Origin: Candidatus Aenigmatarchaeota archaeon
GTDB lineage: Archaea; Aenigmatarchaeota; Aenigmatarchaeia; CG10238-14; SCSR01
Assembly: GCA_038999725.1 (NCBI GenBank)
Contig: JAWBWS010000002.1
Coordinates: forward strand, 32,001 to 96,000
Direction: 5' to 3'
DNA: 64,000 bases
Shown piece by piece: positions 22,194 to 56,883 of the stretch; position 1 is the first letter of the stretch; the number at the start of each line of letters is the position of its first letter. The notes beneath the pieces were generated by a model. It was not told where the DNA came from. It was given only the letters and a program-made list of their open reading frames with translations, and ran no database searches. Both the position numbers and the translations under genes were made by a program.

Positions 22194-23234
22194 ATGGAAG
22201 AACTTAGCAAAAGTCAAATTATGAAATATTTGCTTTCATACTTTACCCTCTTTCCATTCACCAAGCCACTCTTCATAAACATAGGTTTAACACATAGGTG
22301 TAATCTAAGGTGTAAAATATGTGAGACTTGGAAAGTCTGGTCAAAATCGGAAAAAGAATTGAATTTGACTGAACTGAAAAATGTTGTTAATGAAATAGGC
22401 TGGTGGGGGGATATAAACATTAGTTTTGCTGGTGGGGAACCCCTTATCAGGAAGTATGAACTTTTGGAATGTATAAAACTGGCGAAGAAGTGGAAACTTG
22501 TAACCCATGTTACATCAAATGGTCAATTGATTGATAGAAAAACAGCTGAAGAACTTGTATCTTCAGGCTTAGACTATTTACAAATTTCCTTAGACGGAAG
22601 TAAAGAAAAAACAAATGATTATATAAGAGGAGATGGGAGTTACAAGAAGATAATAAAAGCTATAAAGGAAGTAAGGAGAGCTAAAGAGAAACTAAATTCA
22701 AACTTAAAACTTTCCCTTACAACTGTTGTAACAGACAAGAATTTGGATGAATTGTTATATATAGTGAAATTGGTTGAGGACTTCAATCTTCATGAAGTTT
22801 CTTTTAACCCCTATAACTTGGACACATCCTACATAAGGAGCAAAAAGTACGAAGAAGATGAGTTTTGGGTCAAAAAAAAGAACATACCCAAGCTGAAGAG
22901 AATATGTGATGAGCTTATCAAAATAAAGAAGAAAAAAAAGAGGATTGGTACCCCATTCTTCATGCTAAGAATGATGCCAAATTACTTTGAGAAAAGGAGG
23001 AAGTTTAAGGATGGTATCTGTTTGGCCGGGTTTACTTACATGTATATTAAACCAAATGGTGATGTTGATGTGTGTGGAAAAGGTCCTTCTTTAAATGTGA
23101 GGGAGAATTCAATTAAAAAAATATGGTACAGCTTGAATTTTGCAAAAACACGACTCAAAATAATGAGATGTAAGAGACCATGTCTCATGCTTTGTTTTCC
23201 AAGAATAGATTTAAGAATGGTTCTAGGTGAGTGA
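22194..23234 (+). CDS. Radical SAM protein with SPASM/twitch-type domain (paralog 1, subclade A)
   Basis: CNLRCKIC, AGGEPL, CLAG...DVC...CKRPCLMLC. Confidence 0.93.
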   Translation: MEELSKSQIMKYLLSYFTLFPFTKPLFINIGLTHRCNLRCKICETWKVWSKSEKELNLTELKNVVNEIGWWGDINISFAGGEPLIRKYELLECIKLAKKWKLVTHVTSNGQLIDRKTAEELVSSGLDYLQISLDGSKEKTNDYIRGDGSYKKIIKAIKEVRRAKEKLNSNLKLSLTTVVTDKNLDELLYIVKLVEDFNLHEVSFNPYNLDTSYIRSKKYEEDEFWVKKKNIPKLKRICDELIKIKKKKKRIGTPFFMLRMMPNYFEKRRKFKDGICLAGFTYMYIKPNGDVDVCGKGPSLNVRENSIKKIWYSLNFAKTRLKIMRCKRPCLMLCFPRIDLRMVLGE

Positions 23235-24333
23235 TGTGAAGAGCCTTTACAGTGGATTTTTAACGTTCCTCAGAGACTATTCACTTAATTGGTTGTCTTA
23301 TCACATTAATTACCCGTTGGTTAAGCCGTGGAGAGTGAATTTTGACATAACTCAAAGGTGTCCATTGAGATGTATAATGTGTAATGTTTGGAGAGAGAAG
23401 GCGAAAGTTTCTAAAGAGCTCACTTTAGATGAATTAAGAAGGCTTGTGGATGAAATTGCTGAATGGGGAATAGATCATATATCTCTTGCGGGAGGGGAAA
23501 CTTTGGTTAGAGCTAGAGATGTGGTGGAATTTATAAAACACGCCTCAAGCAAGCTTAATATGAGAGTTGATTTGATAACAAACGGTTATTATCTGGATGA
23601 AAAGTTGTGTAAAGAGTTGTTAGAGGCAAAAGTTTCTAAAATTTCTCTTTCTGTGGATGGAGCGAAAAGGGAAACGCACGATTTCATAAGAGGTAAAGGA
23701 AGTTTTGATAGAGTTATGAGAGCGGCTAGAATTCTCACAAAAATTAAAAAAAGGATGAAGAGCGATGTGGAGCTTGAATTCACAACAGTTGTTACATCTT
23801 ACAATTTTAAAGAACTTGTAGATATCTTTAACTTGATGAGGAAACTTGGATTTCACTACATCACTTATCAAGCTGTTGTTCCAGACAACACCTTCACAAG
23901 AAGGCTAGATGTTTTCTACAAATTTTATGAGAGTGATGTGTGGATAAAAGAAAAAGACTTACCTGAACTGGAAAATATAGTGAAAAAACTTGTTTTGTTG
24001 AAGAAGAAAACGGGACAAATAAGAAATACAAGAAGATACCTGCTTTTTTTACCGGAGTACTTCAGGAAAAAGGAAAGATTCAAAACAGGAAAGTGTATAG
24101 TTGGTTATAGCTACATGAACATAGACGCCTACGGTAAGTTGAATGTTTGTGGCCTTGGTCCTAAAATTAGTGTGAAGGATGGGAAATTGAAAAATTTGTG
24201 GAAAAGCAAAAGGTATAAGCTAACAAGGGTCTTGATAAAAAGATGTAAGAGGCCTTGCTTGATGTTGTGTTATGAAAAACTGAATTTCAAAGAACTTTTG
24301 GAAGCATGGCTGGAGTTAAGAGGATGGATTTGA
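23227..24333 (+). CDS. Radical SAM/SPASM protein (paralog 2, subclade A)
   Basis: CPLRCIMC, AGGET, CIVG...NVC...CKRPCLMLC. Confidence 0.93.
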   Translation: MSDVKSLYSGFLTFLRDYSLNWLSYHINYPLVKPWRVNFDITQRCPLRCIMCNVWREKAKVSKELTLDELRRLVDEIAEWGIDHISLAGGETLVRARDVVEFIKHASSKLNMRVDLITNGYYLDEKLCKELLEAKVSKISLSVDGAKRETHDFIRGKGSFDRVMRAARILTKIKKRMKSDVELEFTTVVTSYNFKELVDIFNLMRKLGFHYITYQAVVPDNTFTRRLDVFYKFYESDVWIKEKDLPELENIVKKLVLLKKKTGQIRNTRRYLLFLPEYFRKKERFKTGKCIVGYSYMNIDAYGKLNVCGLGPKISVKDGKLKNLWKSKRYKLTRVLIKRCKRPCLMLCYEKLNFKELLEAWLELRGWI

Positions 24334-25382
24334 GAGAAAAAATAAAAAAAGTAGGAATTTACTTAAGATACTACTTTTCTTACCTTTTAAATCGTCCCTT
24401 AATCTATCCCAAAGAAGTAAATTTTCAAATGACAAACAGGTGCACACTGCAGTGTAAAATGTGCAACATATGGAAATTGCCAAGAGAGAAAGAAGAAATT
24501 AGTGTGGATGAAATGAAAAGAATTTTGAGTGAAGTAAAAAATTGGAAAAATACAAAGTATGTTTCCTTTGTTGGGGGCGAATCTTTGATAAGGATGGAAG
24601 AAACACTTGAGCTAATCGAGTATGCTAATTCCCTCGGGTTCCACACAAACCTTGTGTCAAATGCAACACTCTTGAATGAAGCTATTTGTAAAAGATTGGT
24701 TGAAGTTGGTCTAGATAGAATTGCACTCTCGCTCGATGGAGCGAAAAGGGAAACGCACGATTTCATAAGAGGTAAAGGTAACTTTAACCAAGTGATAAAA
24801 GCTGCAAAAATTTTTCTAAAACTTAAAAAAGATTATCATATAAAAGTTGACTTCACAAGTGTTTTGATGTCTTACAACTTTAGAGAGTTTGTTGATCTTT
24901 ATTGGCTGGGTAAAAAAATTGGTGTTGACCAATGGTTTATTCAGTGTCTTGTATTAGACAATACCTTCCGCAGTTTTGATTACAATTCACCCCTTTGGAT
25001 AAAAGAAGGTCAATTGGAAAAACTGAAAGAAGTGGTGAATAAATTGATAGAGCTTAAAATTAAAGACAAAAACTTTATACACAATTCAATCGACTACCTT
25101 AGGGCAATACCAAAATATTTTGAGTTAAAGAAAAATTTTAAACTTGGAAAATGTATGGCCGGCTACTTCACACTAAACATAGATCCATACGGTAATATCA
25201 ACATATGCAATTTTGGACCCAACATCAACCTCATAGGAAAAGATGTTAATGAAGCTTGGAAAAATGAAAAATTCAAGCGAACTAGAATTTTGATAAAAGA
25301 ATGTAAAAATCCGTGTATGATGCTATGCTATCAAAGATTTAGCTTTCCAGAACTTCTAAGAACATTTCTATCCGGTGATTAA
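24324..25382 (+). CDS. Radical SAM/SPASM protein (paralog 3, subclade A)
   Basis: CTLQCKMC, VGGES, CMAG...NIC...CKNPCMMLC; start MDLREK preferred. Confidence 0.93.
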   Translation: MDLREKIKKVGIYLRYYFSYLLNRPLIYPKEVNFQMTNRCTLQCKMCNIWKLPREKEEISVDEMKRILSEVKNWKNTKYVSFVGGESLIRMEETLELIEYANSLGFHTNLVSNATLLNEAICKRLVEVGLDRIALSLDGAKRETHDFIRGKGNFNQVIKAAKIFLKLKKDYHIKVDFTSVLMSYNFREFVDLYWLGKKIGVDQWFIQCLVLDNTFRSFDYNSPLWIKEGQLEKLKEVVNKLIELKIKDKNFIHNSIDYLRAIPKYFELKKNFKLGKCMAGYFTLNIDPYGNINICNFGPNINLIGKDVNEAWKNEKFKRTRILIKECKNPCMMLCYQRFSFPELLRTFLSGD

Positions 25383-26414
25383 GTGAATGATATTTTTGAA
25401 GCAATAACCTTGGGTAAAAAAGTGGAGCCAAAACTTCTAATGCTTTCCCCAACGGATTATTGCAATCTTGCATGTAAAATATGTTGGAGATTAAAAGAGG
25501 ATGCAAAATTCAGCCAACCTTCTTTCAATTTTCTTAAAAAAATTATAAAAGAAGCAAGTGAAATGAAAGTGAAAACCATAGACCTCACAGGTGGTGGCGA
25601 GCCTTTCGTTAGGGGGGATATCCTTAATTTAATGAAGCTTGTGAAAAAACTCGGAATGAAAGGAACTTTAACAACCAACTCTACTTTAATAAAAAAATCC
25701 CACATCAAAAATATAGTCAAAATGAAGTGGGATGAAATAAACCTCTCGCTAGATGGCTCAACACCTGAAATAAATGATTACATAAGAGGTGAGGGTACTT
25801 TTGAAAAAGTTCTAGAAAAAATTAAAACATTTCAAGAAATCAAAAAAAATAACAATAGCTCCAATCCTTTGTTGAGGCTTTGTTTTACCATAACTAGCAC
25901 CAATTTCCAAGATTTGCCGAACTACATAAAATTGGCGAAACATTTGGACATCAAGAACATCAACTTCTCCATTCTTTTTAAATGGGAATCCAATAGGGAA
26001 TTTTGGCTAAAGCAATATGATAAAGAGAAAGTTAATTATATTCTTAGAGAAAGTTCAAGATTGGCAAAGAGTTTAGATATAAAAACAAACTTAGAACCAA
26101 TAAAGATGTTTGGTATTTGGAAACACGAGCCGCCTAAATTTTGCTTTGCACCTTGGTACATGCTCTTCATAAATGCAAGTAGGGAGGCTATGGCATGCTG
26201 CACTCTTGCTTCTTTGTATCAAAATAAGTTGGGAAAAGTAAATAGTTTGGAAGAAGTTTGGTTCAGTAGAAAAATGGAAATGTTGAGAGAAAGGATGAAA
26301 AAAAGAATTTTCTTTAAAGAGTGTAAAAGATGTTTACCTGAATTTACTCAAATGTTTAACCAAATGTATGGTGAGATGAAAAGATGGAGCTTGAAGAAAT
26401 CAAAAGAAGGTTAG
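25383..26414 (+). CDS. Radical SAM/SPASM protein (paralog 4)
   Basis: CNLACKIC, GGGEPF, CFAPW...ACC...CKRC. Confidence 0.93.
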   Translation: MNDIFEAITLGKKVEPKLLMLSPTDYCNLACKICWRLKEDAKFSQPSFNFLKKIIKEASEMKVKTIDLTGGGEPFVRGDILNLMKLVKKLGMKGTLTTNSTLIKKSHIKNIVKMKWDEINLSLDGSTPEINDYIRGEGTFEKVLEKIKTFQEIKKNNNSSNPLLRLCFTITSTNFQDLPNYIKLAKHLDIKNINFSILFKWESNREFWLKQYDKEKVNYILRESSRLAKSLDIKTNLEPIKMFGIWKHEPPKFCFAPWYMLFINASREAMACCTLASLYQNKLGKVNSLEEVWFSRKMEMLRERMKKRIFFKECKRCLPEFTQMFNQMYGEMKRWSLKKSKEG

Positions 26415-27475
26415 AACTCTGGGCTGATGGAAAAAAAGCAGGACCTGTTAGAATGGAGCTTCATCCTACCGATGCTTGTAATTTGAGTTGTATTTTTTGT
26501 TGGAGAAGAAAATCTGAAGGATTAAGAAAAAAAGAACTTCCTGAATCCAAACTGCTACAAATAGTCAGAGAAGCTGCAAAATTGGGAGTTAAAGAGTGGG
26601 TGGTATCTGGAGGGGGTGAGCCTCTAGTTAGGAAGGAAGTTACTTTAAAGATTTTGGGTGAGATTAAAAAACACAATATGTGGGGGTTATTGACAACAAA
26701 TGGAACCTTACTTACAAAAAGGGATTCAGAGTTTTTAATTAGGATTGGTTGGGACCAAGTCCAATTCAGTATAGACGGTCCGAATAAAAAGTTGAACGAC
26801 TTCCTCAGACCGCCAAACTCATTTGAAAGAATAATAAAAGCGATAAAAACATTGAGAAAAGTGAGAGATTCTAAAAGTTCAAAGAAGCCATACATTGGCT
26901 TCAACACAATCCTAAACAATAGGAATTTTGACAAAATAGATGAGATGATTGAGTTGGCTTATGAAGTTGGGGCAGAACTTGTGTTCTTCGAGCCTATCTA
27001 TCCAGGATATTCAGAAGTAGAGTTGGGAATTTCTAAGAAAGAAACAAAAAAGCTGGTTAAATCTGTGAAAAGAGGGGGAAGGGTTGCCAAGAAGCTTGGT
27101 ATTGATACAAATGTTAAAGACTTTTTAGAAGTTCATTTAGCAGACAAATCAAATTTGAGAGAAAAAATTATCAAAGAAGTTGAAGGGTTAAATGGGTTTA
27201 AAGGAGCACCTTGCTTCAGGCCTTGGTATTTGATGGGGATAAAGGCCTCGGGATTTGCTGGATGTTGCTCAACATTCGAAAGGGGTGAGTTTATTCAAGG
27301 TAAATGTTTAGAAGAAGTTTGGTTTGGGAAAATTTTTAATAAGTTGAGGGAAGAGATGTGTGAGAAGAAGATACCAGACTATTGTTCAAAGTGTAGTATT
27401 GTTGTTTTGAAAGAGAACAGAATTTTGAGAGAAATGTTGATGGGAAATGGAGGAAAAAATAGAAAGATTGATTAA
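26384..27475 (+). CDS. Radical SAM/SPASM protein (paralog 5)
   Basis: CNLSCIFC, SGGGEPL, CFRPW...GCC...CSKC. Confidence 0.93.
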   Translation: MELEEIKRRLELWADGKKAGPVRMELHPTDACNLSCIFCWRRKSEGLRKKELPESKLLQIVREAAKLGVKEWVVSGGGEPLVRKEVTLKILGEIKKHNMWGLLTTNGTLLTKRDSEFLIRIGWDQVQFSIDGPNKKLNDFLRPPNSFERIIKAIKTLRKVRDSKSSKKPYIGFNTILNNRNFDKIDEMIELAYEVGAELVFFEPIYPGYSEVELGISKKETKKLVKSVKRGGRVAKKLGIDTNVKDFLEVHLADKSNLREKIIKEVEGLNGFKGAPCFRPWYLMGIKASGFAGCCSTFERGEFIQGKCLEEVWFGKIFNKLREEMCEKKIPDYCSKCSIVVLKENRILREMLMGNGGKNRKID

Positions 27476-28526
27476 ATGGTCGAAAGGGGGAAAAGCCCCT
27501 CCATTAACTTTAGAGTTGAATATAACCAACAAATGCAATTTACTTTGTAAAATGTGTTGGTTGAGGTCTACCAACCCAAATTATGATGAAGAAATGAAAG
27601 ATGAAGAACTTGCTCGAATAATTGATGAAGCTATAGAACTGGGTGTGAAAGAGTTCAGATTTCCTGGTAGTGGTGAACCTCTTATGAGAAAAGAAATTCT
27701 CTTCAAGTTGATGAAAAAGATAAAAGAAAGGGGTGGTAATGGTCTTCTTATATCTAATGGCACACTTTTTTCTGAAGAAGATGTGAAAAAAATGATTGAA
27801 ATGAAATGGGATGTTTTAACAATTAGTCTTGATGGTCCATCTCCTGAAATTAACGATTACATAAGAGGTGTTGAAGGAGCTTTTGAAGGGGTGGTGAAAA
27901 CATTGAACTTAATCAAAAAATGGAAAAAGAAGTTAAGAGAAGAATATCCTTGGTTAAGGATGAATGTGGTTTTAACCAATAAAAACTACAATAAACTTGA
28001 AGAAATTGTGATGTTGGCGAGCGAGTTTGGTTTCAAGGAGGTTCTCTTGCAGCCCATGACCATATTTTCTAAAGAAGGGGAAAAATTAAGAATAAAGAAT
28101 GTGGAAAGTATAAGCGATTATTTGAAAGCTGCAGAAAGAAGGGCAAGAGAATTTGACATCAAAACTAATTTTAGCTCCTTCATAAAGAGCATCATAGTTG
28201 AGAGAACGAATGAGATGAAAAAAATGATTAAAGAGGAAATCAGAAAATTTGATGATGAGTTTTTGTGTGTACCTTGCTACGAACCTTTTTACAATCTAGT
28301 AATTATGCCGAATGGAAAAGTTGGGTCGTGTGCAATCTCTGGAGGTAAAACTGAAGTTGATGTGAAAAACAACAGTCTAAAAGAAGTTTGGTTTGGCCCC
28401 TTTTTTGATGAAGTTAGAAAGAATTTGCTAAAGGGAAAATTATTCCCTTTCTGTTCACATTGCTGTGTTCCCATATTCTTAGAAAACAAAAAATTAAGAA
28501 GTGAACTGGCTAAGGTGATTGAATGA
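27447..28526 (+). CDS. Radical SAM/SPASM protein (paralog 6)
   Basis: CNLLCKMC, PGSGEPL, CYEPF...GSC...CSHCC. Confidence 0.93.
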   Translation: MEEKIERLIKWSKGGKAPPLTLELNITNKCNLLCKMCWLRSTNPNYDEEMKDEELARIIDEAIELGVKEFRFPGSGEPLMRKEILFKLMKKIKERGGNGLLISNGTLFSEEDVKKMIEMKWDVLTISLDGPSPEINDYIRGVEGAFEGVVKTLNLIKKWKKKLREEYPWLRMNVVLTNKNYNKLEEIVMLASEFGFKEVLLQPMTIFSKEGEKLRIKNVESISDYLKAAERRAREFDIKTNFSSFIKSIIVERTNEMKKMIKEEIRKFDDEFLCVPCYEPFYNLVIMPNGKVGSCAISGGKTEVDVKNNSLKEVWFGPFFDEVRKNLLKGKLFPFCSHCCVPIFLENKKLRSELAKVIE

Positions 28527-29656
28527 TTTTTGAAAAAGAAGCAGTGGAAAGGTTACGCATGTGGTTTGAAAACAAGAAGGCCCCTCCATTACATATTGAT
28601 GTGGAACCTACTTCTTCATGCAACCTAAAATGCCTTTTCTGTTGGACAAGGTCAGAAGACAGAGTAAAGAGCTGTCAGTACCAAAGGAAATTAACTAGCA
28701 AAAGACTTTTGGAAATAGTTCGGGAAGCAGCAGCATTTGGTGTGAAAGAATGGGAAATCGCTGGGGGATGGGAACCGATGAGTAAACCAGAAGTTGTTTT
28801 CAAGATGATGATTTTAATAAAAAAATATGGAATGTATGGATCGATAACAACAAATGGAACTTTATTCACCGAGAAGATGATAAAAAAACTTGTGAAAATT
28901 GGTTGGGATAGAATATTGTTCTCCTTGGAAGGTCCAGATGCAGATACACATGACTTCTTAACACAAGTTAAAGGATCTTTTGAAAGGGAAAAGAGAAACA
29001 TAAGCCTATTCAAGAAGTGGAAAGAAAGGCTTGGTGTGAAAAAACCAGCTTACTCCATCCATTCTGTTCTAACAAACAAGAATTATGATAAACTGGAGCA
29101 GATGATTGAGCTTGGATATGAGTTAGGTTGTGAAGGTGTGAATTTCGAGCCTTTGATGATTTGGTCTGAAGAGGGGAAAAAATTGAAATTGAACAAAAGT
29201 CAGAGAGAAGAGCTTGGAATTCATGTTGAAAGAGCATTAAAAAAGGCTAAAGAGCTTGGAATTCATACAAATGTTGTAAATTTGAGAGAAGAAAAGCTGG
29301 TGAACAAGAGAGACATGAGAAAAGTTATTAGGGAGGGTGTAAACATGAGGAGAAAAAACATTCTTGACTCCCCTTGTTTTTCTCCCTGGCTCAACATGGA
29401 AATAAGGGTGAGTGGTAGAGTTACCGCTTGTAGAATTTGTAATGATGAAACTGGTTGTGAAAATATAATGGATAAAAGTTTGGAAGATATTTGGTTTGGT
29501 GAGTATTTTGAAAACTTGAGAAAACAATTCATAAATGGAAATTTACCAAAGTATTGTAAGGATTGTGCAAGTGGCTTGATTGTTGACATGAGAAGATTGA
29601 GAGAGCAACTCATTAAAAAAGTAGGTCCTTTTGGATGTATAAGGAGGATATTTTAG
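28523..29656 (+). CDS. Radical SAM/SPASM protein (paralog 7)
   Basis: CNLKCLFC, AGGWEPM, CFSPW...TAC...CKDC. Confidence 0.93.
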   Translation: MIFEKEAVERLRMWFENKKAPPLHIDVEPTSSCNLKCLFCWTRSEDRVKSCQYQRKLTSKRLLEIVREAAAFGVKEWEIAGGWEPMSKPEVVFKMMILIKKYGMYGSITTNGTLFTEKMIKKLVKIGWDRILFSLEGPDADTHDFLTQVKGSFEREKRNISLFKKWKERLGVKKPAYSIHSVLTNKNYDKLEQMIELGYELGCEGVNFEPLMIWSEEGKKLKLNKSQREELGIHVERALKKAKELGIHTNVVNLREEKLVNKRDMRKVIREGVNMRRKNILDSPCFSPWLNMEIRVSGRVTACRICNDETGCENIMDKSLEDIWFGEYFENLRKQFINGNLPKYCKDCASGLIVDMRRLREQLIKKVGPFGCIRRIF

Positions 29657-32259: not shown

Positions 32260-32263
32260 TAAG

Positions 32264-34481: not shown

Positions 34482-34530
34482 AGGAAGGTGGTGAAAGATT
34501 AGAATAAAAGGAATTATTTATGATGTAGGA

Positions 34531-46031: not shown

Positions 46032-46211
46032 TTTAAATCAACTTTGAATTATTCACTAAAATTTATATTTGTATTTAAATTTTAAACTACCACCTAGTCG
46101 TCCTCTAAAGTTACTTCAAAACATGAATGAAGACGCTTCTTGGGTGGAAGAGCTTGAAAGGTTAATATAGAAGCAAAGAAAGTGTACATTATCTCTCTCC
46201 TAACATTACAC

Positions 46212-47321: not shown

Positions 47322-47325
47322 AATT

Positions 47326-48420: not shown

Positions 48421-48593
48421 ATTAATAAATAATTAAACTCAAAAATCTATTGGTTACTGTTCAACATCTCCCAACTTGAAAATGTTAAAAAATTACAATA
48501 TCTTGAAACAACTCTCCCAAAAGTCACAATAATCTCAACTTCTCTGAAAAGAAAGTGATTTATATATACCAAATAATTCTTATACACCAAAAA

Positions 48594-49163: not shown

Positions 49164-49213
49164 ATTTTTTTTTTAAGTATAATATGAATATAAATATAAC
49201 TAATTAAAAACAT

Positions 49214-50260
49214 CTAACAAGCATTGAAAAGTATGTTTTTTTCAACAAGCAAATTGTAAATTTTTTCAGTTACTAGTTGATATCCAAATGGGTTAAGATG
49301 CAAATCTATAGAATTAAGGTATAAATTTTCTCCTGAATGTTGGAAAAACAAAGTATCTAAATCAATTATATACCAATGATTTTTTTTAACAATTTCTGGG
49401 AAAGGGGCTTTTTGGAACTCAGGGGTATGAATGGTTAAAATTATTATTTCAGTATTAAATGGAATGTAAGAAGCTAGTTTTTCAAAACTGTTTTTTATTA
49501 TCTCTTGTGCTTTTCTTTCATCAACTTCTTTTAGAGCTTTAAGTCTTATTCTGGCTTCAAAATGTACCCTCTCTTCTAAAGTTAATGGGCGTCCAAGTTT
49601 TTGTTTCAATTCACTCTCTGCTTTTCGTATTTCTTTCCCCAATTCTATGTTGCTAATGATATCATCTCCTGTATATTGAAAAATAATAATGTTGGGTGAG
49701 AAGTTTAGCGCTTTGGATCTTAAAACTTCAATTTTTTCGATTATGTCATAGCCTGGAACACCAAAATTTAACACTTCATAATTTTTCCCATCATTTCTCT
49801 CATTTAAAAGTCTTTCAAGCACTTTGGGGTAACTGTCTTCTAAATTTACACCCAAACCAAATGTATGTGAATCTCCTATTGCAATTATCCTACAGGCATT
49901 TGGAGGTTTTATTAAAGGATATTCTTTATCCCTAAATCCATAAGAATTGATTTTTATATAAACGGGTGATTGACATAAATATAAACCATCGTAAATTCCT
50001 TCATAATTTGGGCGTAATTCTGCACTTAAAAAAGAATTATTACTCCTTTCCATAAAATCATGGGGACAAGCAGGGGGCCCTGTGCCTATCTCTTTACAAG
50101 GACAGTTTGAAAAGTTTGAAGTCAAAACTTTTGGAGAGTAGCCTATTATTTGAAATTCTTTTTTATTAGAAATGATTTTGATGGAGAACAAAACTGTCAA
50201 AGTAATTATAGAAATAAGATAGGCAATGTAAACTAAAGTACTTCTTTTCATTTCTCTCAT
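49214..50260 (-). CDS. Membrane-anchored SGNH/GDSL hydrolase (acyl/carbamoyl esterase or transferase)
   Basis: INSYGFRD, AIGDSHTFG, NFGVPGY, DLHLN motifs. Confidence 0.9.
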   Translation of the reverse strand: MREMKRSTLVYIAYLISIITLTVLFSIKIISNKKEFQIIGYSPKVLTSNFSNCPCKEIGTGPPACPHDFMERSNNSFLSAELRPNYEGIYDGLYLCQSPVYIKINSYGFRDKEYPLIKPPNACRIIAIGDSHTFGLGVNLEDSYPKVLERLLNERNDGKNYEVLNFGVPGYDIIEKIEVLRSKALNFSPNIIIFQYTGDDIISNIELGKEIRKAESELKQKLGRPLTLEERVHFEARIRLKALKEVDERKAQEIIKNSFEKLASYIPFNTEIIILTIHTPEFQKAPFPEIVKKNHWYIIDLDTLFFQHSGENLYLNSIDLHLNPFGYQLVTEKIYNLLVEKNILFNAC

Positions 50261-50343: not shown

Positions 50344-52035
50344 TCATTTCAAGTCACCTTTATCTATCAAATAATTGTTTAAAACCAAGTAATCTATGTT
50401 TGTTTTCATAAAATCATTTAAAGCATCTTGTGGTGAACAAACTATAGGCTCACCTCTTAGGTTAAAAGAAGTATTTATAACAGCTGGAACTCCTGTTAAA
50501 GAATAAAATTCTTCAATTAGCTTATGATATAGCTTTTCTCTTTTTTCAACTGTAGTCTGAGGTCTTGCTGTTCCGTCAACGTGTGTTGCAGAAATAATTT
50601 CTTTTCTTTTCTCATTTTTTACTGGTAAGGTAATAATCATGAAAGGCATATCTAGATCAAATTCAAAATATCTTTCAACTTCACCTAAAATGAGGGATGG
50701 AGCAAATGGTCTAAACCATTCTCTCTGTTTAACTTTCTTATTCAATATATCTTTCATTTTTGGATTTGAGGGATTTGCCAAAATACTTCTATGACCCAAA
50801 GCTCTTGGTCCCAATTCCATTCTGTCTTGAAACCAACCTACAACTTTATCTTTAGCTATAGCTTCTGCTGTAGCCCTTACTATTTCTTTATCACTCAACT
50901 TTTCAAACTTTATTTTTCTTGATTCGAGTAATTCCTTTATTTCCCTCTTAGAAAATTTTGGACCTAAAAACACATGTTTCATGACATATTTTCTTTTTTT
51001 ACCTAAAATTTTGTTATAAGTGTATAAAGCTGCACCTAGAGCTCCTCCAGCATCTGTAGCTGCTGGTTGAAAGAAGACATTTTTAAAAATTTTACTCATC
51101 AAAATTTTTCCATTCGCTACAGAATTCAAAACAACACCGCCAGCCATGCATAAATTTTCACATTTTGTTAGGTCAAAAGCATGTTTAACTATCTTCAGAA
51201 TAACTTCTTCAGTAATTCTCTGTAGAGAGGCTGCAATATCCATATGTCTTCTTTCTATTTTTTCCTCGGGTTTTCTTGCTTTCCCAAACTCTTTTTCCAA
51301 CTCGTCAGAAAACATTCTTTCACTATGTGTATAGGAGAAATACCTCATGTTGAGTTTGAAACTTCCATCATCCTTAAAATCAATCAACTTTTTGAATTTG
51401 TTATAGTAAATTGGCTTCCCCCAACCTGCTAACCCCATTACCTTATACTCATCGCTCAAAACTTTGAAACCCAGATAGGAAGTTATTGTGCTGTAAAGAA
51501 GACCGAGGGAATGGGGAAAATTTATCACTTTTAAAGTTTTAATTTCATTTCCTTGGCCATAATGAATTGCTGTTGTTGTCCATTCCCCCACAGCATCTAT
51601 AGTAACTATAGCTGCCTCATCAAAAGGGGAGGAAAAAAAGGCGCTGGCAGCATGAGATTTGTGATGAGGGACAAAAAGAGTCTCATGTGTGTAATCAAGA
51701 TTTTTCTTTATCATCTCAGGCATTCTTAATTTTTCAAGTATCCACTGTGGTAAAGCATCTCTAAACATTTTGAAAGAATTGGGGAATGTTTCAACACAAG
51801 TTTGGAGAATTCTTTCAAATTTTTGAAAAGGTTTTTCATAAAAAACCACATAGTCTAATTTTTCAGGATTTACATTGGCTTCTTTAAGGCAATAGTTTAT
51901 TACATTCTTTGGAAAGCTGTTATCGTGTTTGACCCTTGTAAACCTTTCCTCTTCTGCTGCAGCTATTACTCTTCCGTCCTTGAGAATACAGGCTGATGAA
52001 TCATGAAAAAAACAAGAAATTCCTAACACATACAT
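50344..52035 (-). CDS. Carbamoyltransferase (NodU/CmcH/SxtI family)
   Basis: LGISCFFHDSSA, EEERFTRVKHD, HHKSHAASAF, EYKVMGLA, GPRALGHRSILA, NTSFNLRGEPIV; start MYVLG. Confidence 0.96.
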   Translation of the reverse strand: MYVLGISCFFHDSSACILKDGRVIAAAEEERFTRVKHDNSFPKNVINYCLKEANVNPEKLDYVVFYEKPFQKFERILQTCVETFPNSFKMFRDALPQWILEKLRMPEMIKKNLDYTHETLFVPHHKSHAASAFFSSPFDEAAIVTIDAVGEWTTTAIHYGQGNEIKTLKVINFPHSLGLLYSTITSYLGFKVLSDEYKVMGLAGWGKPIYYNKFKKLIDFKDDGSFKLNMRYFSYTHSERMFSDELEKEFGKARKPEEKIERRHMDIAASLQRITEEVILKIVKHAFDLTKCENLCMAGGVVLNSVANGKILMSKIFKNVFFQPAATDAGGALGAALYTYNKILGKKRKYVMKHVFLGPKFSKREIKELLESRKIKFEKLSDKEIVRATAEAIAKDKVVGWFQDRMELGPRALGHRSILANPSNPKMKDILNKKVKQREWFRPFAPSLILGEVERYFEFDLDMPFMIITLPVKNEKRKEIISATHVDGTARPQTTVEKREKLYHKLIEEFYSLTGVPAVINTSFNLRGEPIVCSPQDALNDFMKTNIDYLVLNNYLIDKGDLK

Positions 52036-52043
52036 ATATACCA

Positions 52044-52256
52044 CTAATATTGACTTTTGTAATCTTCTTCCTCTTCTGGTTCCAACCAATAGCTTTCTTT
52101 ATTTTCTTTTTTTAAAATTGTTGAGAGCTTCCACAAAAGGAAAGACAAGCTGATACCCAACCAATATGAAAGTGTGTTAACAAAAAGATTTGTGATAAAT
52201 ATAGAAAACTCTTTTAACTTTTCTACTCCACATCTGATATTTTCAAATTTACCCAT
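52044..52256 (-). CDS. SxtJ-like small membrane protein
   Basis: Start MGKFEN; TM followed by SYW...YKSQY C-terminus typical of SxtJ-like proteins; position between DUF5989 and the carbamoyltransferase. Confidence 0.7.
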   Translation of the reverse strand: MGKFENIRCGVEKLKEFSIFITNLFVNTLSYWLGISLSFLLWKLSTILKKENKESYWLEPEEEEDYKSQY

Positions 52257-52261
52257 AGCTA

Positions 52262-52423
52262 TCATATCAGGGGATACATAAATAATGGCACGGGCGAAAC
52301 CTGAGCAGCTATAGTTAACAAACCTAGTATGAACAATAAGCAAATTAATGGAACAAGCCACCATTTTTTAGTCTTCCATATGAATTTTAAAATGTCCATG
52401 AGAAGATAAAATCTTCTCACCAT
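52262..52423 (-). CDS. DUF5989/SxtK-like small membrane protein (not in the ORF track)
   Basis: MVRRFYLLMDILKFIWKTKKWWLVPLICLLFILGLLTIAAQVSPVPLFMYPLI*; KKWWLxP...FxYxL signature. Confidence 0.85.
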   Translation of the reverse strand: MVRRFYLLMDILKFIWKTKKWWLVPLICLLFILGLLTIAAQVSPVPLFMYPLI

Positions 52424-52556: not shown

Positions 52557-53663
52557 ATGGAAGAATTGATTGAAAGATTGTTAGAATGGGGGAGAGGTAA
52601 AACCCAAGGACCCTTGAGCATACATTTAGACCCCACGAATAGATGTAATTTGAGATGTAGGTTTTGCTGGCAACGTTCTCATGAGAGGTTTGGTTGGCTC
52701 GATAGAAAAAATGAACTCCCAGAGAAAAAGCTTCTGGAAGTCGTGAGAGAGGCTGCAGAACTTAAAGTAAAAGATTGGCTCATCTCTGGTGGTGGAGAAC
52801 CTTTTGTGAGATTATCAACTACAACAAAACTTATGGTTGAAATAAAAAAACATGGAATGTATGGTGATATAATCACGAATGGCACACTATTGGATGAAAT
52901 TCACATAAGAAAAATTGTTGAAGCGGGATGGGATGTTATGCGATTCAGCGTGAATGCCCCTGATGAGAAAACTCATGATTTCATGGTTGATTGTAAAAGA
53001 TCTTATCAAAAAGTAATTGAAAACATCAAAACTACCCAGAAAATAAAGAAAAAGTTGGGTAAGGAAACACCTGTAATTGGTTTTAACACAGTAATCACTA
53101 GTAAAAACTACTTCTTGTTTCCCTCTTTGGTAGACTTATTGGAGGAATTGGGAGGGAAGATTCTCAATGTCCAAACTATAATTCTTTATGACAAGGTTGA
53201 AAAAATTTGGTCTTTGAATGAAGAAGAAAAAAAAGATTCTATAAAATATTTAAAAGAAGCTGCTAAAAAATGCAAAAAATATGGGATAAAAACTAATCTT
53301 GATAGCTACACGAAAGAGGATGTGATAGAAAAAACTACGGAAATGGATTCTATAGTAGAGCTTGGGAAAAAAGAAATAAAAAAAGTCAAGTCAAAAAACA
53401 AGTTGGTTAAAGCATTTTGTTATGAGCCTTTTTATTTGGTAACTATAAGAGCGAATGGAACAGTCGGCTCTTGTAGACTTTTTGGAGATAAGGGAGATAA
53501 TCTTCATACAAAAACTCTCAAAGAGATTTGGTTTGGTGAATATTTCAACAAAGCAAGGGCTACTTTACTAAAAGGTCCACAATCTTTCTGCTCGAAATGC
53601 GGCTCTAACGAAATTTTAGAGCAGATAAGGATAAGGAATGAATTAGTGAAGGTGTTGGGCTAA
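52557..53663 (+). CDS. Radical SAM/SPASM protein (paralog 21)
   Basis: CNLRCRFC, SGGGEPF, CYEPF...GSC...CSKC. Confidence 0.93.
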   Translation: MEELIERLLEWGRGKTQGPLSIHLDPTNRCNLRCRFCWQRSHERFGWLDRKNELPEKKLLEVVREAAELKVKDWLISGGGEPFVRLSTTTKLMVEIKKHGMYGDIITNGTLLDEIHIRKIVEAGWDVMRFSVNAPDEKTHDFMVDCKRSYQKVIENIKTTQKIKKKLGKETPVIGFNTVITSKNYFLFPSLVDLLEELGGKILNVQTIILYDKVEKIWSLNEEEKKDSIKYLKEAAKKCKKYGIKTNLDSYTKEDVIEKTTEMDSIVELGKKEIKKVKSKNKLVKAFCYEPFYLVTIRANGTVGSCRLFGDKGDNLHTKTLKEIWFGEYFNKARATLLKGPQSFCSKCGSNEILEQIRIRNELVKVLG

Positions 53664-54751
53664 TGTTTGAAGATAAAATAGCTGAGAGGATTTTAGAATG
53701 GGGAAAGAAAGAGGTTGGGCCATTTGAAGTTCAATTCAATCCCACGAATAGATGTAATTTGAGATGTAGGTTTTGCTGGCTAAGGGATTTTGATAAAGGT
53801 GGGTTAAATCTAGAAGAGCTAAGCACTAAAAAATATTTGGAAATTGTAAAAGAATGCAGCAAGATGGGAGTCCACACAATTGAGATAACTGGTGGTGGTG
53901 AACCATTGATGAGAAAGGATTCTCTAACCTTAATGAAAAGTGTTAAGCGTCATAAGATTTATGGTAGACTGATAACCAACGGTACTCTTTTCTCAGAAAA
54001 CATGTTAAATACACTTATAAAAATAGGGTGGGATGAAATAGTTTTCAGTCTTGATGCTCCTGAGAGAAGTGTAAACGATTATTTGAGAGGTAAGAGCTTT
54101 GATCGGGTAGTTAAAACAATAAAGACGCTTCAGATAATGAAGGTTGAGAGAAAGAAAGAAAAGCCAGCTGTAAATATTCATATGGTGCTTTGCAACAAGA
54201 ATTTTCACCTTTTACCGAAGATGTTTGAATTTGCTTATGATTTGAATTGTAGAAATTTAGTTGTAGAGCCAATAGTCTTGCTCGCTACAAAAACTAAAGC
54301 TGGTAGAGAGTTGTTGTTCAGAAAAAAAGATAAAAACTCTTTACTCAAATTCATTCGTGAAGCAACTAAAATTGCACATAAGCACAACTTTCAAACAAAT
54401 ATTGATAAACTGGAGTTTAAGCTCATAGAAAGCACTACAAAAATGAAAAAGATTGTTAGAAAAGAGGGTGAAAAAGAAGAAATTCTCTGGGCATCTTTAG
54501 CATGCTATCAACCCTTTTATCATATTATAATAAGGCCATGGGGGATTGTTGGTCCATGTTGTATGTTTGATAATACAGGCGAAAATATAGCAGAAAAATC
54601 TTTAAGAGAAATATGGTTTGGGGAATTTTTCGAAAAAATGAGGAAGAAGATGTTGGATAGAAATTTACCAAATTTTTGCTCAAAGTGTAATCCAAGCCAA
54701 ATACAAGAAAACAGGAAGATAAGAGAATACATTAAAAGATTAAGTGATTGA
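53663..54751 (+). CDS. Radical SAM/SPASM protein (paralog 22)
   Basis: CNLRCRFC, TGGGEPL, CYQPF...PCC...CSKC. Confidence 0.93.
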   Translation: MFEDKIAERILEWGKKEVGPFEVQFNPTNRCNLRCRFCWLRDFDKGGLNLEELSTKKYLEIVKECSKMGVHTIEITGGGEPLMRKDSLTLMKSVKRHKIYGRLITNGTLFSENMLNTLIKIGWDEIVFSLDAPERSVNDYLRGKSFDRVVKTIKTLQIMKVERKKEKPAVNIHMVLCNKNFHLLPKMFEFAYDLNCRNLVVEPIVLLATKTKAGRELLFRKKDKNSLLKFIREATKIAHKHNFQTNIDKLEFKLIESTTKMKKIVRKEGEKEEILWASLACYQPFYHIIIRPWGIVGPCCMFDNTGENIAEKSLREIWFGEFFEKMRKKMLDRNLPNFCSKCNPSQIQENRKIREYIKRLSD

Positions 54752-55825
54752 ATGGATGGAAAAATAGAAAGATTGATTGAATGGTCTGCGGGAAGGAGGG
54801 CAGCTCCATTCACCTTAGACATCAATCCTACTGATAAATGCAATTTTAAGTGTAAGCATTGTTGGCAAAGGGCATTTGAAAAAATTGATTTTAGTTATGA
54901 ACTTTCTGACAAGAAGCTAATAGAAGTTGTGAAGGAGGCTATAAAATTTGGGGTGGAAGAATTTGAGATAACTGGTGGTGGTGAACCATTGATGAGGAAA
55001 GAATTAACGTTAAAAATAATGGAAGTGATTAAAAAAAACAAAAAATTTGGAAACATAACGACTAATGGCAGTTTATTGAACTTGGAGGATATAAAAAAAA
55101 TGGTAAAAATTGGTTGGGATAGAATCACTTTTAGTTTGGATGGGGCTGACCCAAAATCAAATGATGCTGTACGAGGAAAGGGAAGCTTTGAGCAAGTTAT
55201 GAATTCTATAAAGCTGTTAAATGATGTGAAAAAGAAGATGAAAAGCAATTTACCTATTATCAAATTCAATGTAGTGGTTAACAGAAAAAATTATAGAGTT
55301 GAAAAAATGATAGAGTTGGCAAAAAAGGTGAACTGTTCAATTGTTCATTTCGATTCCCTTACAATTCATTCTAAAATGGGGGAAAAATTGAAGTTAACAA
55401 AAAGGCAACAAGCAGAATTTGAAAAGCATGCTAAAATTGCAAAGCAACTGGCTGAAAAGTTTAAGATATGGACTGATGTAAATCTTTTAACCAGTAAATT
55501 CTTGGAAAAATCAAATGAAATGGAAGATTTACTGGAAAAGGAAAGTGATTCAAAAGACTTCTTTTCTTTAGTTTGCTATGAGCCTTGGTGGCATCTTGTG
55601 ATAAAGACTAATGGTACAGCTCAACCTTGCTGTTTGTATGATGAAAAAGAAGAAAGTGTGAAAAACAAGAGTTTGAGGGAAATCTGGTTTGGTGAATTTT
55701 TTGAAAAAATAAGAAAGAGTATAAAGCAAAAACATTTTTCAAAATATTGTTCTATTTGCAATGCCGGGCAAGTTTTTGAAAACAGAAGAATAAGGGAAGA
55801 ATTGGGAAAATGGAGGAAAAAATAA
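54752..55825 (+). CDS. Radical SAM/SPASM protein (paralog 23)
   Basis: CNFKCKHC, TGGGEPL, CYEPW...PCC...CSIC. Confidence 0.93.
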   Translation: MDGKIERLIEWSAGRRAAPFTLDINPTDKCNFKCKHCWQRAFEKIDFSYELSDKKLIEVVKEAIKFGVEEFEITGGGEPLMRKELTLKIMEVIKKNKKFGNITTNGSLLNLEDIKKMVKIGWDRITFSLDGADPKSNDAVRGKGSFEQVMNSIKLLNDVKKKMKSNLPIIKFNVVVNRKNYRVEKMIELAKKVNCSIVHFDSLTIHSKMGEKLKLTKRQQAEFEKHAKIAKQLAEKFKIWTDVNLLTSKFLEKSNEMEDLLEKESDSKDFFSLVCYEPWWHLVIKTNGTAQPCCLYDEKEESVKNKSLREIWFGEFFEKIRKSIKQKHFSKYCSICNAGQVFENRRIREELGKWRKK

Positions 55826-56883
55826 AAAGACTTGTAAGATGGTCTAAAGGAAGAAAGAGTTTACCTTACAGTATAGAATTGAGTCCAACTTTGAGATGTA
55901 ATTTGAATTGTCTTTTTTGTTGGAGATATGGGAAAAAGATTGAGTATGGAGATGAATTGACATTGGAAGAATATAAAAGGATTTTAAAGGAAGCTGAGGA
56001 GCTTAAGGTGAGAGAAATAAGAATCATAGGAGGAGGTGAACCCTTGTTAAGGAAAGATACTTTCGAATTAATGAAGGAAGTTAAAAAACATGGGATGTTC
56101 GGATACATTTGTACTAATGGTACACTCTTTTCAGATGAAGCTATAAAAACATTGGTATCAATTGGGTGGGATCATGTAAAAATTAGTGTTCATGCCCCTG
56201 ATAAAAAAACTCAAGACTTTTTAGCCCAAGGGAAAAGTTTTGAGAGGCAAATAAAAAACATAAAAAGTTTTGTTGGATGGAAAAGGAAATTGAAATCGGA
56301 GAGCCCGAAAATTGAAATTGGCCTTGTCTTGAATAGGCTGAACTTCAGAAAAGTAATGGATATGGTAAAACTGGTAAAGAAATTGAATGTACAAGCATTT
56401 TTCATTGAGCCAATAACTGTGTATACCAAAATTGGAAAAAATTTGAAATTAAGAAATGAAGAGAGTGAAGAATTCAAAGAAATAGCAAGAAAAGCTTATT
56501 CTATTTCAAATGGTTTGGAAACAAACTTACAACAATTTTTTTCACGGGAGCTTATAGAAAAGACTGGAAAGATGTTAGAAGAAATCAAAAAACTAGTAAA
56601 GAGTGTGAGGGATGATTTTCTTTCAATCCCTTGTTATGAGCCCTGGTGGAGAATGGGGATAAGGGTAGATGGATGGGTTTGTCCTTGTGGATTTTTGGAT
56701 CAAAACACCAGAGAAAATGTGCGTAATAAGAGTTTAAAGGAAATCTGGTTTGGTGAATATTTTGAGGAAAGGCGAAAACAATTGCTTCAAAAAAATATGC
56801 CAAAATATTGCCAGAAATGTTGCACTACTTTGGTCCAATATAATCAAATAATAAGGGAAGAACTTTCAAAATTCATAGGCTGA
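55810..56883 (+). CDS. Radical SAM/SPASM protein (paralog 24)
   Basis: CNLNCLFC, IGGGEPL, CYEPW...CPC...CQKCC. Confidence 0.93.
   Translation: MEEKIKRLVRWSKGRKSLPYSIELSPTLRCNLNCLFCWRYGKKIEYGDELTLEEYKRILKEAEELKVREIRIIGGGEPLLRKDTFELMKEVKKHGMFGYICTNGTLFSDEAIKTLVSIGWDHVKISVHAPDKKTQDFLAQGKSFERQIKNIKSFVGWKRKLKSESPKIEIGLVLNRLNFRKVMDMVKLVKKLNVQAFFIEPITVYTKIGKNLKLRNEESEEFKEIARKAYSISNGLETNLQQFFSRELIEKTGKMLEEIKKLVKSVRDDFLSIPCYEPWWRMGIRVDGWVCPCGFLDQNTRENVRNKSLKEIWFGEYFEERRKQLLQKNMPKYCQKCCTTLVQYNQIIREELSKFIG

Follow-up and report, generated by a model that had tools for sequence, protein, structure and literature searches.

To our knowledge, the radical S-adenosylmethionine (rSAM) enzymes with sugar substrates have come singly or in pairs, from antibiotic pathways. 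Among them, BtrN (4m7s/4m7t) and BlsE (7vob) combine a CX3CX2C core with a short C-terminal domain of four cysteines (in BtrN, we take these to be C169, C188, C232 and C235), and SpeY, HygY and AprD4 are further carbohydrate-acting enzymes of this "twitch" type. A second group of relatives comprises the SPASM/twitch maturases of peptides that are made on ribosomes and modified after translation (RiPPs), such as PqqE (6c8v), SkfB (6efn), SuiB (5v1q) and CteB (5wgg). Surface glycans, in turn, may be exported by ATP-binding cassette (ABC) transporters of the Wzm/Wzt or TagGH kind, as in the E. coli O9a O-polysaccharide system with WbdA/WbdD and its coiled-coil ruler, and we know of no characterized pathway dependent on such a transporter in which rSAM enzymes are the majority of genes. 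Here we analyze a stretch of 64,000 nucleotides, referred to as the window (positions 32,001 to 96,000 of contig JAWBWS010000002.1, assembly GCA_038999725.1), from a hot-spring Candidatus Aenigmatarchaeota archaeon (genome G000 below), in which 24 rSAM genes stand together among genes for glycan synthesis and export. Judging from its gene content, this island is best explained as a conserved accessory locus for a cell-surface glycan that follows the Wzm/Wzt route.

The array occupies positions 22194–56883 of the window. The open reading frame (ORF) list and a Pfam scan of the 39 ORFs from 17999–63592 identified 24 rSAM genes, all intact and encoding proteins of 337–468 aa. Pairwise identity among the paralogs ranges from 18.8 to 43.0% (median 31.6%), and because the maximum is 43% there are no recent duplicates. 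Among the same-strand junctions checked, 20 of 22 overlap, abut or are spaced by 4 nt or less, although ORFs were taken from their longest possible starts and the overlaps may be overstated. Together the genes sum to 26,775 nt, or 3.67% of an assembly of 729,769 bp (9 contigs, 93% complete; window GC about 33%), and the whole genome has 36 PF04055 matches, these 24 among them. They are listed here with the occurrence of their orthogroups; these counts, and those of the other island families below, refer to the six islands compared (G000, G005, G028, G099, G107 and G261).

22194–23234, + strand: R01, rSAM of the R01–R03 subclade (CxxxCxxxC end); orthogroup in 6/6 genomes
23227–24333, + strand: R02, rSAM of the R01–R03 subclade; orthogroup in 4 genomes
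24306–25382, + strand: R03, rSAM of the R01–R03 subclade; orthogroup in 4 genomes
25383–26414, + strand: R04, twitch-type rSAM; orthogroup in 6/6 genomes
26384–27475, + strand: R05, twitch-type rSAM; orthogroup in 6/6 genomes
27447–28526, + strand: R06, twitch-type rSAM; orthogroup in 6/6 genomes
28523–29656, + strand: R07, twitch-type rSAM; orthogroup in 6/6 genomes
29657–30847, + strand: R08, twitch-type rSAM; orthogroup in 6/6 genomes
30807–31991, + strand: R09, twitch-type rSAM; orthogroup in 5 genomes
32264–33418, + strand: R10, twitch-type rSAM; orthogroup in 5 genomes
33333–34481, + strand: R11, twitch-type rSAM; orthogroup in 6/6 genomes
35843–36940, - strand: R12, twitch-type rSAM; orthogroup in 5 genomes
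36943–38073, - strand: R13, twitch-type rSAM; orthogroup in 5 genomes
38001–39095, - strand: R14, twitch-type rSAM; orthogroup in 5 genomes
40195–41289, + strand: R15, twitch-type rSAM of the variable middle; orthogroup in 4 genomes
41270–42676, + strand: R16, twitch-type rSAM with C-terminal coiled coil and tail; orthogroup in 4 genomes
42648–43790, - strand: R17, twitch-type rSAM of the variable middle; clade of 3 genomes, support 0.65
43768–44781, - strand: R18, twitch-type rSAM, the main group's most divergent member; orthogroup in 4 genomes
46212–47321, - strand: R19, twitch-type rSAM of the variable middle; clade of 3 genomes, support 0.70
47326–48420, - strand: R20, twitch-type rSAM of the variable middle; clade of 2 genomes, support 0.48
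52557–53663, + strand: R21, twitch-type rSAM; orthogroup in 5 genomes
53663–54751, + strand: R22, twitch-type rSAM; orthogroup in 5 genomes, among the closest to the rSAM-glycosyltransferase fusion domain described below
54752–55825, + strand: R23, twitch-type rSAM, assigned from Pfam, motifs and tree
55810–56883, + strand: R24, twitch-type rSAM, last before a pair of glycosyltransferase genes and the modelled member; assigned from Pfam, motifs and tree

All 24 proteins match PF04055 (Radical_SAM) at 61–104 bits against a gathering cut-off of 29.5, all carry CX3CX2C, and none contains an internal stop. The Cys motif begins at residue 16–57, preceded by 15–56 residues. In a 24-row alignment (R24 numbering), C30, C34, C37, E77 of the GGE motif, S126, C275, C293, W313, R322 and C334 are invariant, while T102-N103-G104 (TNG) and G74/G76 are near-invariant and C337 is present in 21/24; W313/R322 form a family signature, and the family also has an N-terminal helix of its own. 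The AlphaFold2 model of R24 (pLDDT 94.4, pTM 0.92) consists of alternating strands and helices and matches rSAM structures, so that Cys motif, Pfam score, GGE motif and the predicted partial TIM-barrel fold agree in placing the proteins in the rSAM superfamily. PF13186 (SPASM) was matched in 21 of the 24 and missed in 23227–24333, 24306–25382 and 26384–27475; the matches cover the N-terminal half of the auxiliary domain that is shared with this model. The seven-Cys motif of SPASM domains with two auxiliary clusters is lacking, since 21 paralogs have four C-terminal cysteines (C-x17-C-x~40-CxxC) and R01–R03 instead have five (C-x17-C-x31-CxxxCxxxC). This truncated four-Cys domain is of the BtrN twitch type and aligns to BtrN residues 164–250, which fits a predicted auxiliary domain with a single, fully ligated [4Fe-4S] cluster. 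An earlier sequence-only reading of the window had described 24 intact rSAM ORFs in about 35 kb with CxxxCxxC, GGE and TNG-like motifs, a four-Cys auxiliary core in 21 of them and tightly packed genes, and each of these observations, along with the Pfam assignments it had called for, is borne out.

That reading would have been refuted had the paralogs fallen into well-characterized unrelated families, and the database comparisons place them outside such families. All 24 fall under every curated NCBIfam cut-off; the commonest top match, TIGR04317 (an rSAM maturase of a tungsten-cofactor oxidoreductase), scores 87–133 bits against an equivalog cut-off of 380. Most paralogs also match NF033640 (N_Twi_rSAM) in two pieces, at 50–100 bits against 170, but in that model the twitch is N-terminal, whereas the matching twitch of the array paralogs is C-terminal. 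Solved structures are remote relatives, with sequence matches as good as E 1e-28 for PqqE and 1e-18 for BtrN and Foldseek template-modelling (TM) scores of 0.65–0.68 at 14–21% identity; BlsE 7vob (TMt 0.74) is among the nearest folds, and DesII 8hzv is also among the fold matches. The RiPP maturases PqqE, SkfB, SuiB and CteB are the best matches (E 1e-28 to 1e-20, TM 0.65–0.67), yet the array lacks their RiPP precursor recognition element (RRE), precursor, protease and peptide exporter, and it has four rather than seven auxiliary cysteines. The resemblance to BtrN and BlsE extends to the core motif, the short four-Cys C-terminal domain, the lack of an RRE and the sugar context. Identity to BtrN, BlsE and their kind is only 14–21% (E 1e-18 to 1e-19), the BtrN match (E 1e-18) comes in two partial stretches, and BtrN is absent among the top Foldseek matches listed. 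Unlike these enzymes, the array enzymes lie in a Wzm/Wzt glycan island devoid of aminoglycoside genes, have their own N-terminal helix and W313/R322 signature, and number 13–27 conserved paralogs per array rather than one or two per pathway. They are therefore not members of the BtrN (2-deoxy-scyllo-inosamine dehydrogenase) family. The family to which they do belong is large: a search at E ≤ 1e-30 returned at least 2,627 representatives (50%-identity clusters) among 1.84 billion, bearing generic names only.

The array is genuine and not an assembly artefact. A single contig from run X1, which may be the source sample, spans 30000–49999 with 0 differences, and in another sample (X3) eight contigs of 0.9–3.3 kb fall on the stretch, each with 0–5 differences, and cross gene junctions. 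Other genomes show this gene order as well, which together with the independent contigs refutes a chimera, a concern the sequence-only reading had raised along with the question of syntenic arrays in other archaea. Collinear arrays of 13–27 copies are present in nine or more further Aenigmatarchaeota genomes, drawn from several families. Genome by genome, beside the 24 copies in this window, there are 24 in G028 (another family), 27 in G107, 25 in G099, 24 in G252 (another family of the class), 20 in G003, 18 in G006, 15 in G005 (at a contig end), 15 in G261, and 11 and 5 in the fragmented G029 and G147. A profile of the 24 paralogs found a match at E ≤ 1e-40 in 10 of 40 relatives, including G000, and 18 of 370 genomes of the phylum had a match at E ≤ 1e-60, with only five candidates scored per genome. 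The array contigs of G003, G005 and G006 (L016; L014–L015; L018) are 99.8–99.95% identical in nucleotide sequence and count as one witness. These three genomes are unusually large (1.0–1.7 Mb, 3–5% contamination), and the contig may be the DNA of one population binned three times.

Each of the 24 genes is an old, separately conserved orthogroup. G028 has collinear 1:1 reciprocal-best-hit orthologs of R01–R14 and R21–R24 at 48–78% identity, and when the 127 rSAM ORFs from the six islands were placed in a tree (aligned where at least 250 aa long), each G000 paralog fell in its own clade. Twenty-one clades have members in at least four of the six genomes with support of 0.93–1.0, seven of them in every one of the six and nine in five; the clades of R17, R19 and R20, located in the variable middle, are weak (support 0.48–0.70). 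Selection on the paralogs is strongly purifying: in 13 G000/G005 ortholog pairs, the proportion of nonsynonymous differences (pN) is 0.11–0.26 and that of synonymous differences (pS, saturated) 0.62–0.83, and dN/dS is 0.02–0.17 in the 7 of these pairs where it was computable, far from the value of about 1 that the sequence-only reading had named as a refutation. In addition, 24 alignment positions are conserved within orthogroups and differ between them, and on the R24 model these positions concentrate in the twitch hairpin and at the C-terminal ends of the barrel strands, both being sites at which the general rSAM fold, rather than a docked model, leads one to expect substrate to be held. The sequence-only reading had argued for many distinct specificities, and the separate clades, their retention across genomes and the orthogroup-specific positions support it.

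Genes around the array provide its context, and those of the G000 island are as follows.

13696–15045, - strand: PMT_2-type (GT-C) membrane glycosyltransferase at the island flank (PF13231, E 8.5e-11); family F6, flanking 4/6 islands
15047–16642, - strand: polytopic GT-C-like membrane protein, paralog of 60475–62190 (weak NF047440 match); family F7 in 4/6
16657–17946, - strand: 429-aa protein beside the exporter, no Pfam/NCBIfam match; family F10 in 3/6 islands
17999–18790, + strand: ABC-2 permease, Wzm-like (PF01061; sub-cut-off matches to NF050109 Wzm/RfbD and KpsM); 6/6 islands
18790–20163, + strand: Wzt/TagH-like ABC ATPase of 457 aa with a C-terminal extension of about 215 aa (PF00005); 6/6 islands
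20160–21293, + strand: 377-aa protein, N-domain of about 150 aa followed by a long E/K-rich coiled coil, no Pfam match; family F11 in 3/6 islands
21300–22193, + strand: GT2 glycosyltransferase abutting R01 (PF00535); 6/6 islands, always adjoining the R01 clade
31984–32259, + strand: 91-aa coiled-coil protein whose C-terminal tail is basic and amphipathic; frame conserved in 5/6 islands
34531–35643, + strand: 370-aa accessory protein with a weak, sub-cut-off GH113-like match (PF22612, E 7.7e-5); not found in the other five islands
39154–40194, + strand: aldo/keto reductase (AKR) fused to a 2x[4Fe-4S] ferredoxin-like domain (PF00248, E 1.8e-36, and PF13534); family F8 in 4/6
44778–46031, - strand: phosphodiesterase-like accessory protein of the alkaline phosphatase superfamily (PF01663, E 9.8e-6); family F17 in 2/6 islands
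48594–49163, - strand: 189-aa membrane-anchored Cys-rich protein by its sequence, no Pfam match; family F12 in 3/6 islands
49214–50260, - strand: GDSL esterase/acyl-hydrolase (PF13472); family F13 in 3/6 islands
50344–52089, - strand: NodU/CmcH-type carbamoyltransferase (PF02543, E 4e-85, and PF16861, E 1e-70); family F18 in 2/6
52262–52423, - strand: 53-aa small membrane protein of the DUF5989 kind, encoded upstream of the carbamoyltransferase (PF19451, E 5.8e-11; 42.7 bits, cut-off 27)
57124–58323, + strand: GT4 glycosyltransferase a (PF13692 and PF13439); GT4 pair in 5/6 islands
58333–59469, + strand: GT4 glycosyltransferase b (PF13439 and PF13692); orthologs 46–72% identical
59360–60469, + strand: membrane-anchored protein by its sequence, no Pfam match; family F9 in 4/6 islands
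60475–62190, - strand: polytopic GT-C-like membrane protein closing the island (sub-cut-off match to NF047440, LA_3751/3752 putative glycosyltransferase, E 6e-13); family F7

Five of the six islands share one gene order: GT-C-like protein, ABC-2 permease, Wzt/TagH ATPase, a variable coiled-coil or unassigned protein (the slot of F11, filled by other unassigned proteins in the remaining islands), GT2, the rSAM array, GT4, GT4, a membrane-anchored protein and a GT-C-like protein. The sixth, in G005, stops at a contig edge. The smallest, in G261, has 13 rSAM genes in uninterrupted series between GT2 and the GT4 pair, and it is the middle of the island, R15–R20, that varies between genomes. As in Wzm/Wzt and TagGH pathways, a permease and a Wzt/TagH-type ATPase are encoded with cytoplasmic glycosyltransferases (GTs) in 6/6 islands, the GT2 and GT4 enzymes are few and probably polymerizing, and coiled-coil proteins belong to the locus. 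The best solved relatives of the ATPase are the ABC transporter 6amx/6m96/7k2t (E 3e-62; 6amx and 7k2t are presumably the Wzm-Wzt O-antigen exporter), followed by TarH/TagH and RfbE. The best NCBIfam match of the GT2 is AglG, a Dol-P-glucose glucuronosyltransferase, at 120 bits, under the cut-off of 440. Unlike in the characterized Wzm/Wzt loci known to us, rSAM genes are more than half of the island's genes, and literature searches yielded no such case.

The island also occurs as a unit. None of four further genomes from this genus matches the rSAM profile, and the array-less genomes of the genus have no orthologs of the island GT2 or Wzt, only generic matches at about 30% identity. With both missing alongside the array, the island is thus either there in full or not at all. 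Such whole-locus presence and absence between close relatives is typical of surface-polysaccharide loci. Recent horizontal transfer was considered, and no sign of it was found: the island proteins (rSAM orthologs 59–81% identical to G000 in G005 and 48–78% in G028) are about as diverged as the archaeal replication factor C small subunit encoded at 523–1482 of the window (84/72/69/67/56% in G005/G028/G099/G107/G261), a single housekeeping gene and so a thin basis. The divergence fits old inheritance with repeated loss.

The strongest functional clue comes from fusions to glycosyltransferases in bacterial relatives. The family-specific motif led to an Omnitrophica locus (L038) that encodes, in order, a Wzt with a Wzt_C domain, a 1256-aa GT2+2xrSAM/SPASM protein, a 787-aa rSAM/SPASM+GT4 protein that is 33% identical to R24 over its full length, a GT4, two GT2s, a Wzy_C ligase and a further GT2. 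A search for longer relatives gave 49 matches, among them rSAM+GT4 (6), GT2+rSAM (6), rSAM+methyltransferase (2), rSAM+TPR (1) and, more weakly, rSAM+carbamoyltransferase N-domain (7) proteins, as well as multi-rSAM polyproteins of 761–1919 aa with two to four rSAM domains. When four rSAM-GT4 fusions were compared with the array, their rSAM domains came out nearest to R22–R24, which adjoin the GT4 pair in G000, and the GT2 fusions of 1251–1256 aa and 1038–1054 aa carry a domain closest to R01–R03, which adjoin the GT2. Archaeal gene adjacency thus mirrors bacterial domain fusion, and particular rSAM clades are therefore tied to particular GTs. In the accessible part of a 2026 preprint on giant proteins of Omnitrophota, radical SAM is placed in a 'sugar metabolism' domain module with no function attached (10.64898/2026.06.07.730766).

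These results favour a glycan over peptides as the substrate, and on balance we lean towards a battery of sugar-directed radical enzymes that tailors a lipid-linked surface glycan before export. In this scheme, the GT2 and the two GT4 enzymes would build a polymer on a dolichyl-phosphate-type lipid carrier at the inner membrane face, for which the GT2's sub-cut-off match to AglG, an enzyme that acts on dolichyl-phosphate-glucose, is the only hint, and the roughly 24 twitch-type enzymes would act on the sugar units of the lipid-linked glycan prior to export. Each would cleave SAM at its CX3CX2C cluster, and the 5'-deoxyadenosyl radical would abstract hydrogen from one particular sugar C-H, after which the fully Cys-ligated auxiliary cluster may move an electron, as in BtrN. 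The outcome could be a keto sugar by oxidation, an epimerization, or a dehydration/deoxygenation, at a position set by the pocket of each paralog. The AKR-ferredoxin fusion might reduce keto intermediates or serve the clusters; AprD4 with AprD3 is a precedent for pairing an rSAM enzyme with a reductase. The carbamoyltransferase, GDSL and phosphodiesterase-like enzymes would add decorations, joined in some relatives by B12-rSAM enzymes and SAM methyltransferases. Coiled-coil and amphipathic-tail proteins (the 91-aa protein, the R16 tail and the 377-aa protein) may hold the machinery at the membrane, with Wzm/Wzt exporting the product and the flanking GT-C-type membrane proteins passing it on. 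Such a set could constitute the combinatorial assembly line that the sequence-only reading envisaged.

Several observations weigh against this interpretation. The proposed chemistry depends on analogy with remote relatives (TM 0.65–0.68; identity 14–21%), the nearest sequence and fold matches include the peptide maturases PqqE, SkfB and SuiB, and the evidence does not separate action on an assembled glycan from action on nucleotide sugars. An AKR without flavin would be an odd electron donor, and its gene is not in the G261 island (the G005 contig ends before the AKR slot). Pfam and NCBIfam scans of the island found no Wzt_C domain (PF14524) in the 457-aa ATPase and no initiating phosphoglycosyltransferase, and the Pfam scan of the G000 island found no kinase/methyltransferase terminator of the WbdD kind; Wzt_C and a chain terminator are not universal among Wzt systems. 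Distant homologs (23–25% identity) in Chitinophagales (L040), Firmicutes CAG:95 (L041) and Polyangiaceae (L050) lie in housekeeping neighbourhoods in 3/3 cases, so that the glycan link is limited to the closer family; these, and two tandem rSAM genes beside citrate synthase in Hydrogenedentota (L039), probably belong to other subfamilies. Finally, a role in replacing missing sugar epimerases of the short-chain dehydrogenase/reductase type was rejected. G000, at 93% completeness, has no match to PF01370 (NAD-dependent sugar epimerase/dehydratase), for which 14/14 control genomes were positive, but three array-less congeners likewise lack it, and among 40 relatives its presence does not track the array (0, 12, 4, 9, 1 and 1 matches in array-bearing genomes, 0 to 10 in array-less ones).

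The nearest competitor stays within sugar chemistry: the rSAM enzymes could act on soluble nucleotide-activated sugars, in lengthy radical pathways that supply the three GTs with a few rare donor sugars. The fold-nearest characterized sugar rSAM enzymes, BlsE (7vob) and DesII (8hzv), do act on small nucleoside- or nucleotide-linked sugars, fusion of a GT to a sugar-modifying enzyme is equally compatible with donor channelling, and G000 has two NTP_transferase genes and no PF01370 epimerase/dehydratase. We nevertheless think it unlikely, as with no more than three donor sugars to serve, 24 enzymes would amount to about eight radical steps for each, paralog number ranges from 13 to 27 with no matching rise in GT number, R16 and the 91-aa protein bear coiled-coil and membrane-tail modules that hint at a membrane site of action, and the PF01370 absence is unlinked to the array. 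RiPP-type maturation, in which thioether or C-C bonds or epimerizations are introduced into a surface protein or a small island protein (for example the Cys-rich 189-aa or the 91-aa coiled-coil protein), draws on the sequence matches to PqqE, SkfB, SuiB and CteB, on the Cys-rich membrane-anchored protein (48594–49163) and a 48-aa, eight-Cys ORF (35710–35856) in the island, and on the large surface proteins upstream. An archaeal SPASM enzyme is also reported, in a 2026 paper, to make protein thioether crosslinks (PMC13692751). It is an improbable account, however: the 39-ORF Pfam scan and inspection of small ORFs revealed no RRE/PqqD, peptidase or precursor-like match, nor a leader peptidase or peptide exporter in the scan, and the 15–56 residues ahead of the Cys motif give too little space for an RRE. 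The 189-aa protein is in only 3/6 islands, the minimal 13-gene island does without the 91-aa protein, the tail of which is also fused to an rSAM enzyme, more in line with a targeting module than with a substrate, and the fusion partners are glycosyltransferases rather than peptide-processing domains. A narrower variant, anSME-like maturation of the alkaline-phosphatase-family protein (44778–46031), was rejected, as that protein occurs in only 2/6 islands.

Modification of an isoprenoid seems quite improbable to us. Under that proposal the enzymes would cyclize, cross-link or saturate the dolichol-type carrier or host-derived membrane lipids, with the GTs adding head-group sugars; a Tes/TrsS-like rSAM gene (62222–63592) and a B12-rSAM gene past the window flank the island, ABC-2 exporters also move lipid-linked molecules, and archaeal lipid tailoring is known to use the rSAM enzymes Tes and Gms (PMC11214058). 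Yet the five other islands lack an ortholog of the Tes-like gene, none of the 24 paralogs reaches the Tes cut-off, no island holds a lipid-synthesis gene, and the Omnitrophota relatives adjoin Wzt_C and an O-antigen ligase. That the array is a redundant or decaying expansion, or a mis-assembly, with no joint function is scarcely credible: tandem paralog arrays can arise neutrally and the R15–R20 middle does vary between genomes, but 24/24 genes are intact with catalytic motifs and at most 43% identical, 1:1 orthologs persist across families at 48–81% identity with pN far below pS, and independent contigs confirm the junctions.

A bolder form of glycan tailoring, possible but in our view doubtful, would have a simple lipid-linked polymer of three GTs rewritten residue by residue by an ordered, position-specific set of rSAM enzymes docked to particular GTs, so that the stereochemistry and oxidation state of the coat are set after polymerization and not by the nucleotide-sugar pool. 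This toolkit would be common to unrelated ultra-small Aenigmatarchaeota and Omnitrophota, and welded in Omnitrophota into giant multi-rSAM and rSAM-GT proteins. Such a scheme would work like the alginate C5-epimerases AlgE1-7, dedicated enzymes that diversify a simple polymer afterwards and to which the array enzymes have no homology, or like the proteusin epimerase PoyD, a radical SAM enzyme that also tailors after polymerization but acts repeatedly, as one enzyme, on a peptide.

Several features of individual island genes deserve mention. The 273-nt apparent gap between R09 and R10 holds the 91-aa protein, uncounted in the earlier reading, whose tail motif also closes the C-terminal extension of the R16 orthogroup (G000, G099, G107). 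This shared tail may be a membrane or scaffold targeting module; similar tails are found on bacterial O-antigen enzymes. The mechanical ORF start of GT4a (TTG, 57055) is probably 23 codons early, as four orthologs begin at the Met encoded at 57124 (M24). The protein at 59360–60469 gives the impression of a putative glycoside-hydrolase-like enzyme. The AKR-ferredoxin gene is duplicated in G099 and G107, and one G107 copy (L053:13161–14783) encodes 540 aa with a C-terminal extension that has a weak coiled-coil-type Pfam match (SKA2), which hints that the reductase may also be tethered. In G261, the Wzt-like ATPase (L059:4798–7374) has 858 aa, about 400 aa more than that of G000, and the added part has no Pfam match. 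The 48-aa ORF at 35710–35856 (+ strand), with its eight cysteines in zinc-ribbon-like pairs, follows the GH113-like gene, and a 106-aa ORF at 52044–52364 overlaps the region of the DUF5989 mini-protein. The G099 island contains seven B12-binding rSAM genes and a SAM methyltransferase, and the G107 island two B12-binding rSAM genes and DUF2079 membrane proteins.

Beyond the island, a 25th rSAM gene at 62222–63592 (+ strand) encodes an N-terminal zinc ribbon (PF23545) and has its best, sub-cut-off matches to TrsS and to the tetraether lipid synthase Tes (NF045702, E 6e-41). Just past the window, at about 95.5–97.6 kb of G000 contig C2, a 454-aa ORF is 28–30% identical to the B12-binding rSAM family. 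Upstream lie a 1371-aa LamG-domain protein (6787–10902, + strand) and proteins with Big_7/Big_13/Big_1 domains (1518–3524 and 4083–5138, both - strand), large and probably surface-exposed, which are candidate glycan carriers.

In full-text literature searches, neither such arrays nor rSAM-GT fusions turned up as a described glycan-tailoring system, in keeping with the earlier expectation that no equivalent array had been functionally described, and the term 'radical SAM' does not occur in the Aenigmarchaeota genomics paper (PMC8407114). The array is thus real, conserved and undescribed in print: its kind of enzyme and its kind of pathway are known, while their combination at this scale is not. 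A function-unassigned family of at least 2,627 clusters is thereby placed in a testable context, in which the Omnitrophota rSAM-GT fusions are single-polypeptide test cases for substrate. If the enzymes edit a polymer, they would represent a new route to rare sugars and a ready-sorted collection of regio- and stereo-specific C-H-activating catalysts, in 21–24 orthogroups with several natural variants each. For the archaeon itself, a 0.73-Mb genome that has shed much else spends 3.67% of its length on these 24 enzymes, and their product must therefore matter to the cell; most likely it is a surface coat, where this DPANN archaeon meets its host or viruses.

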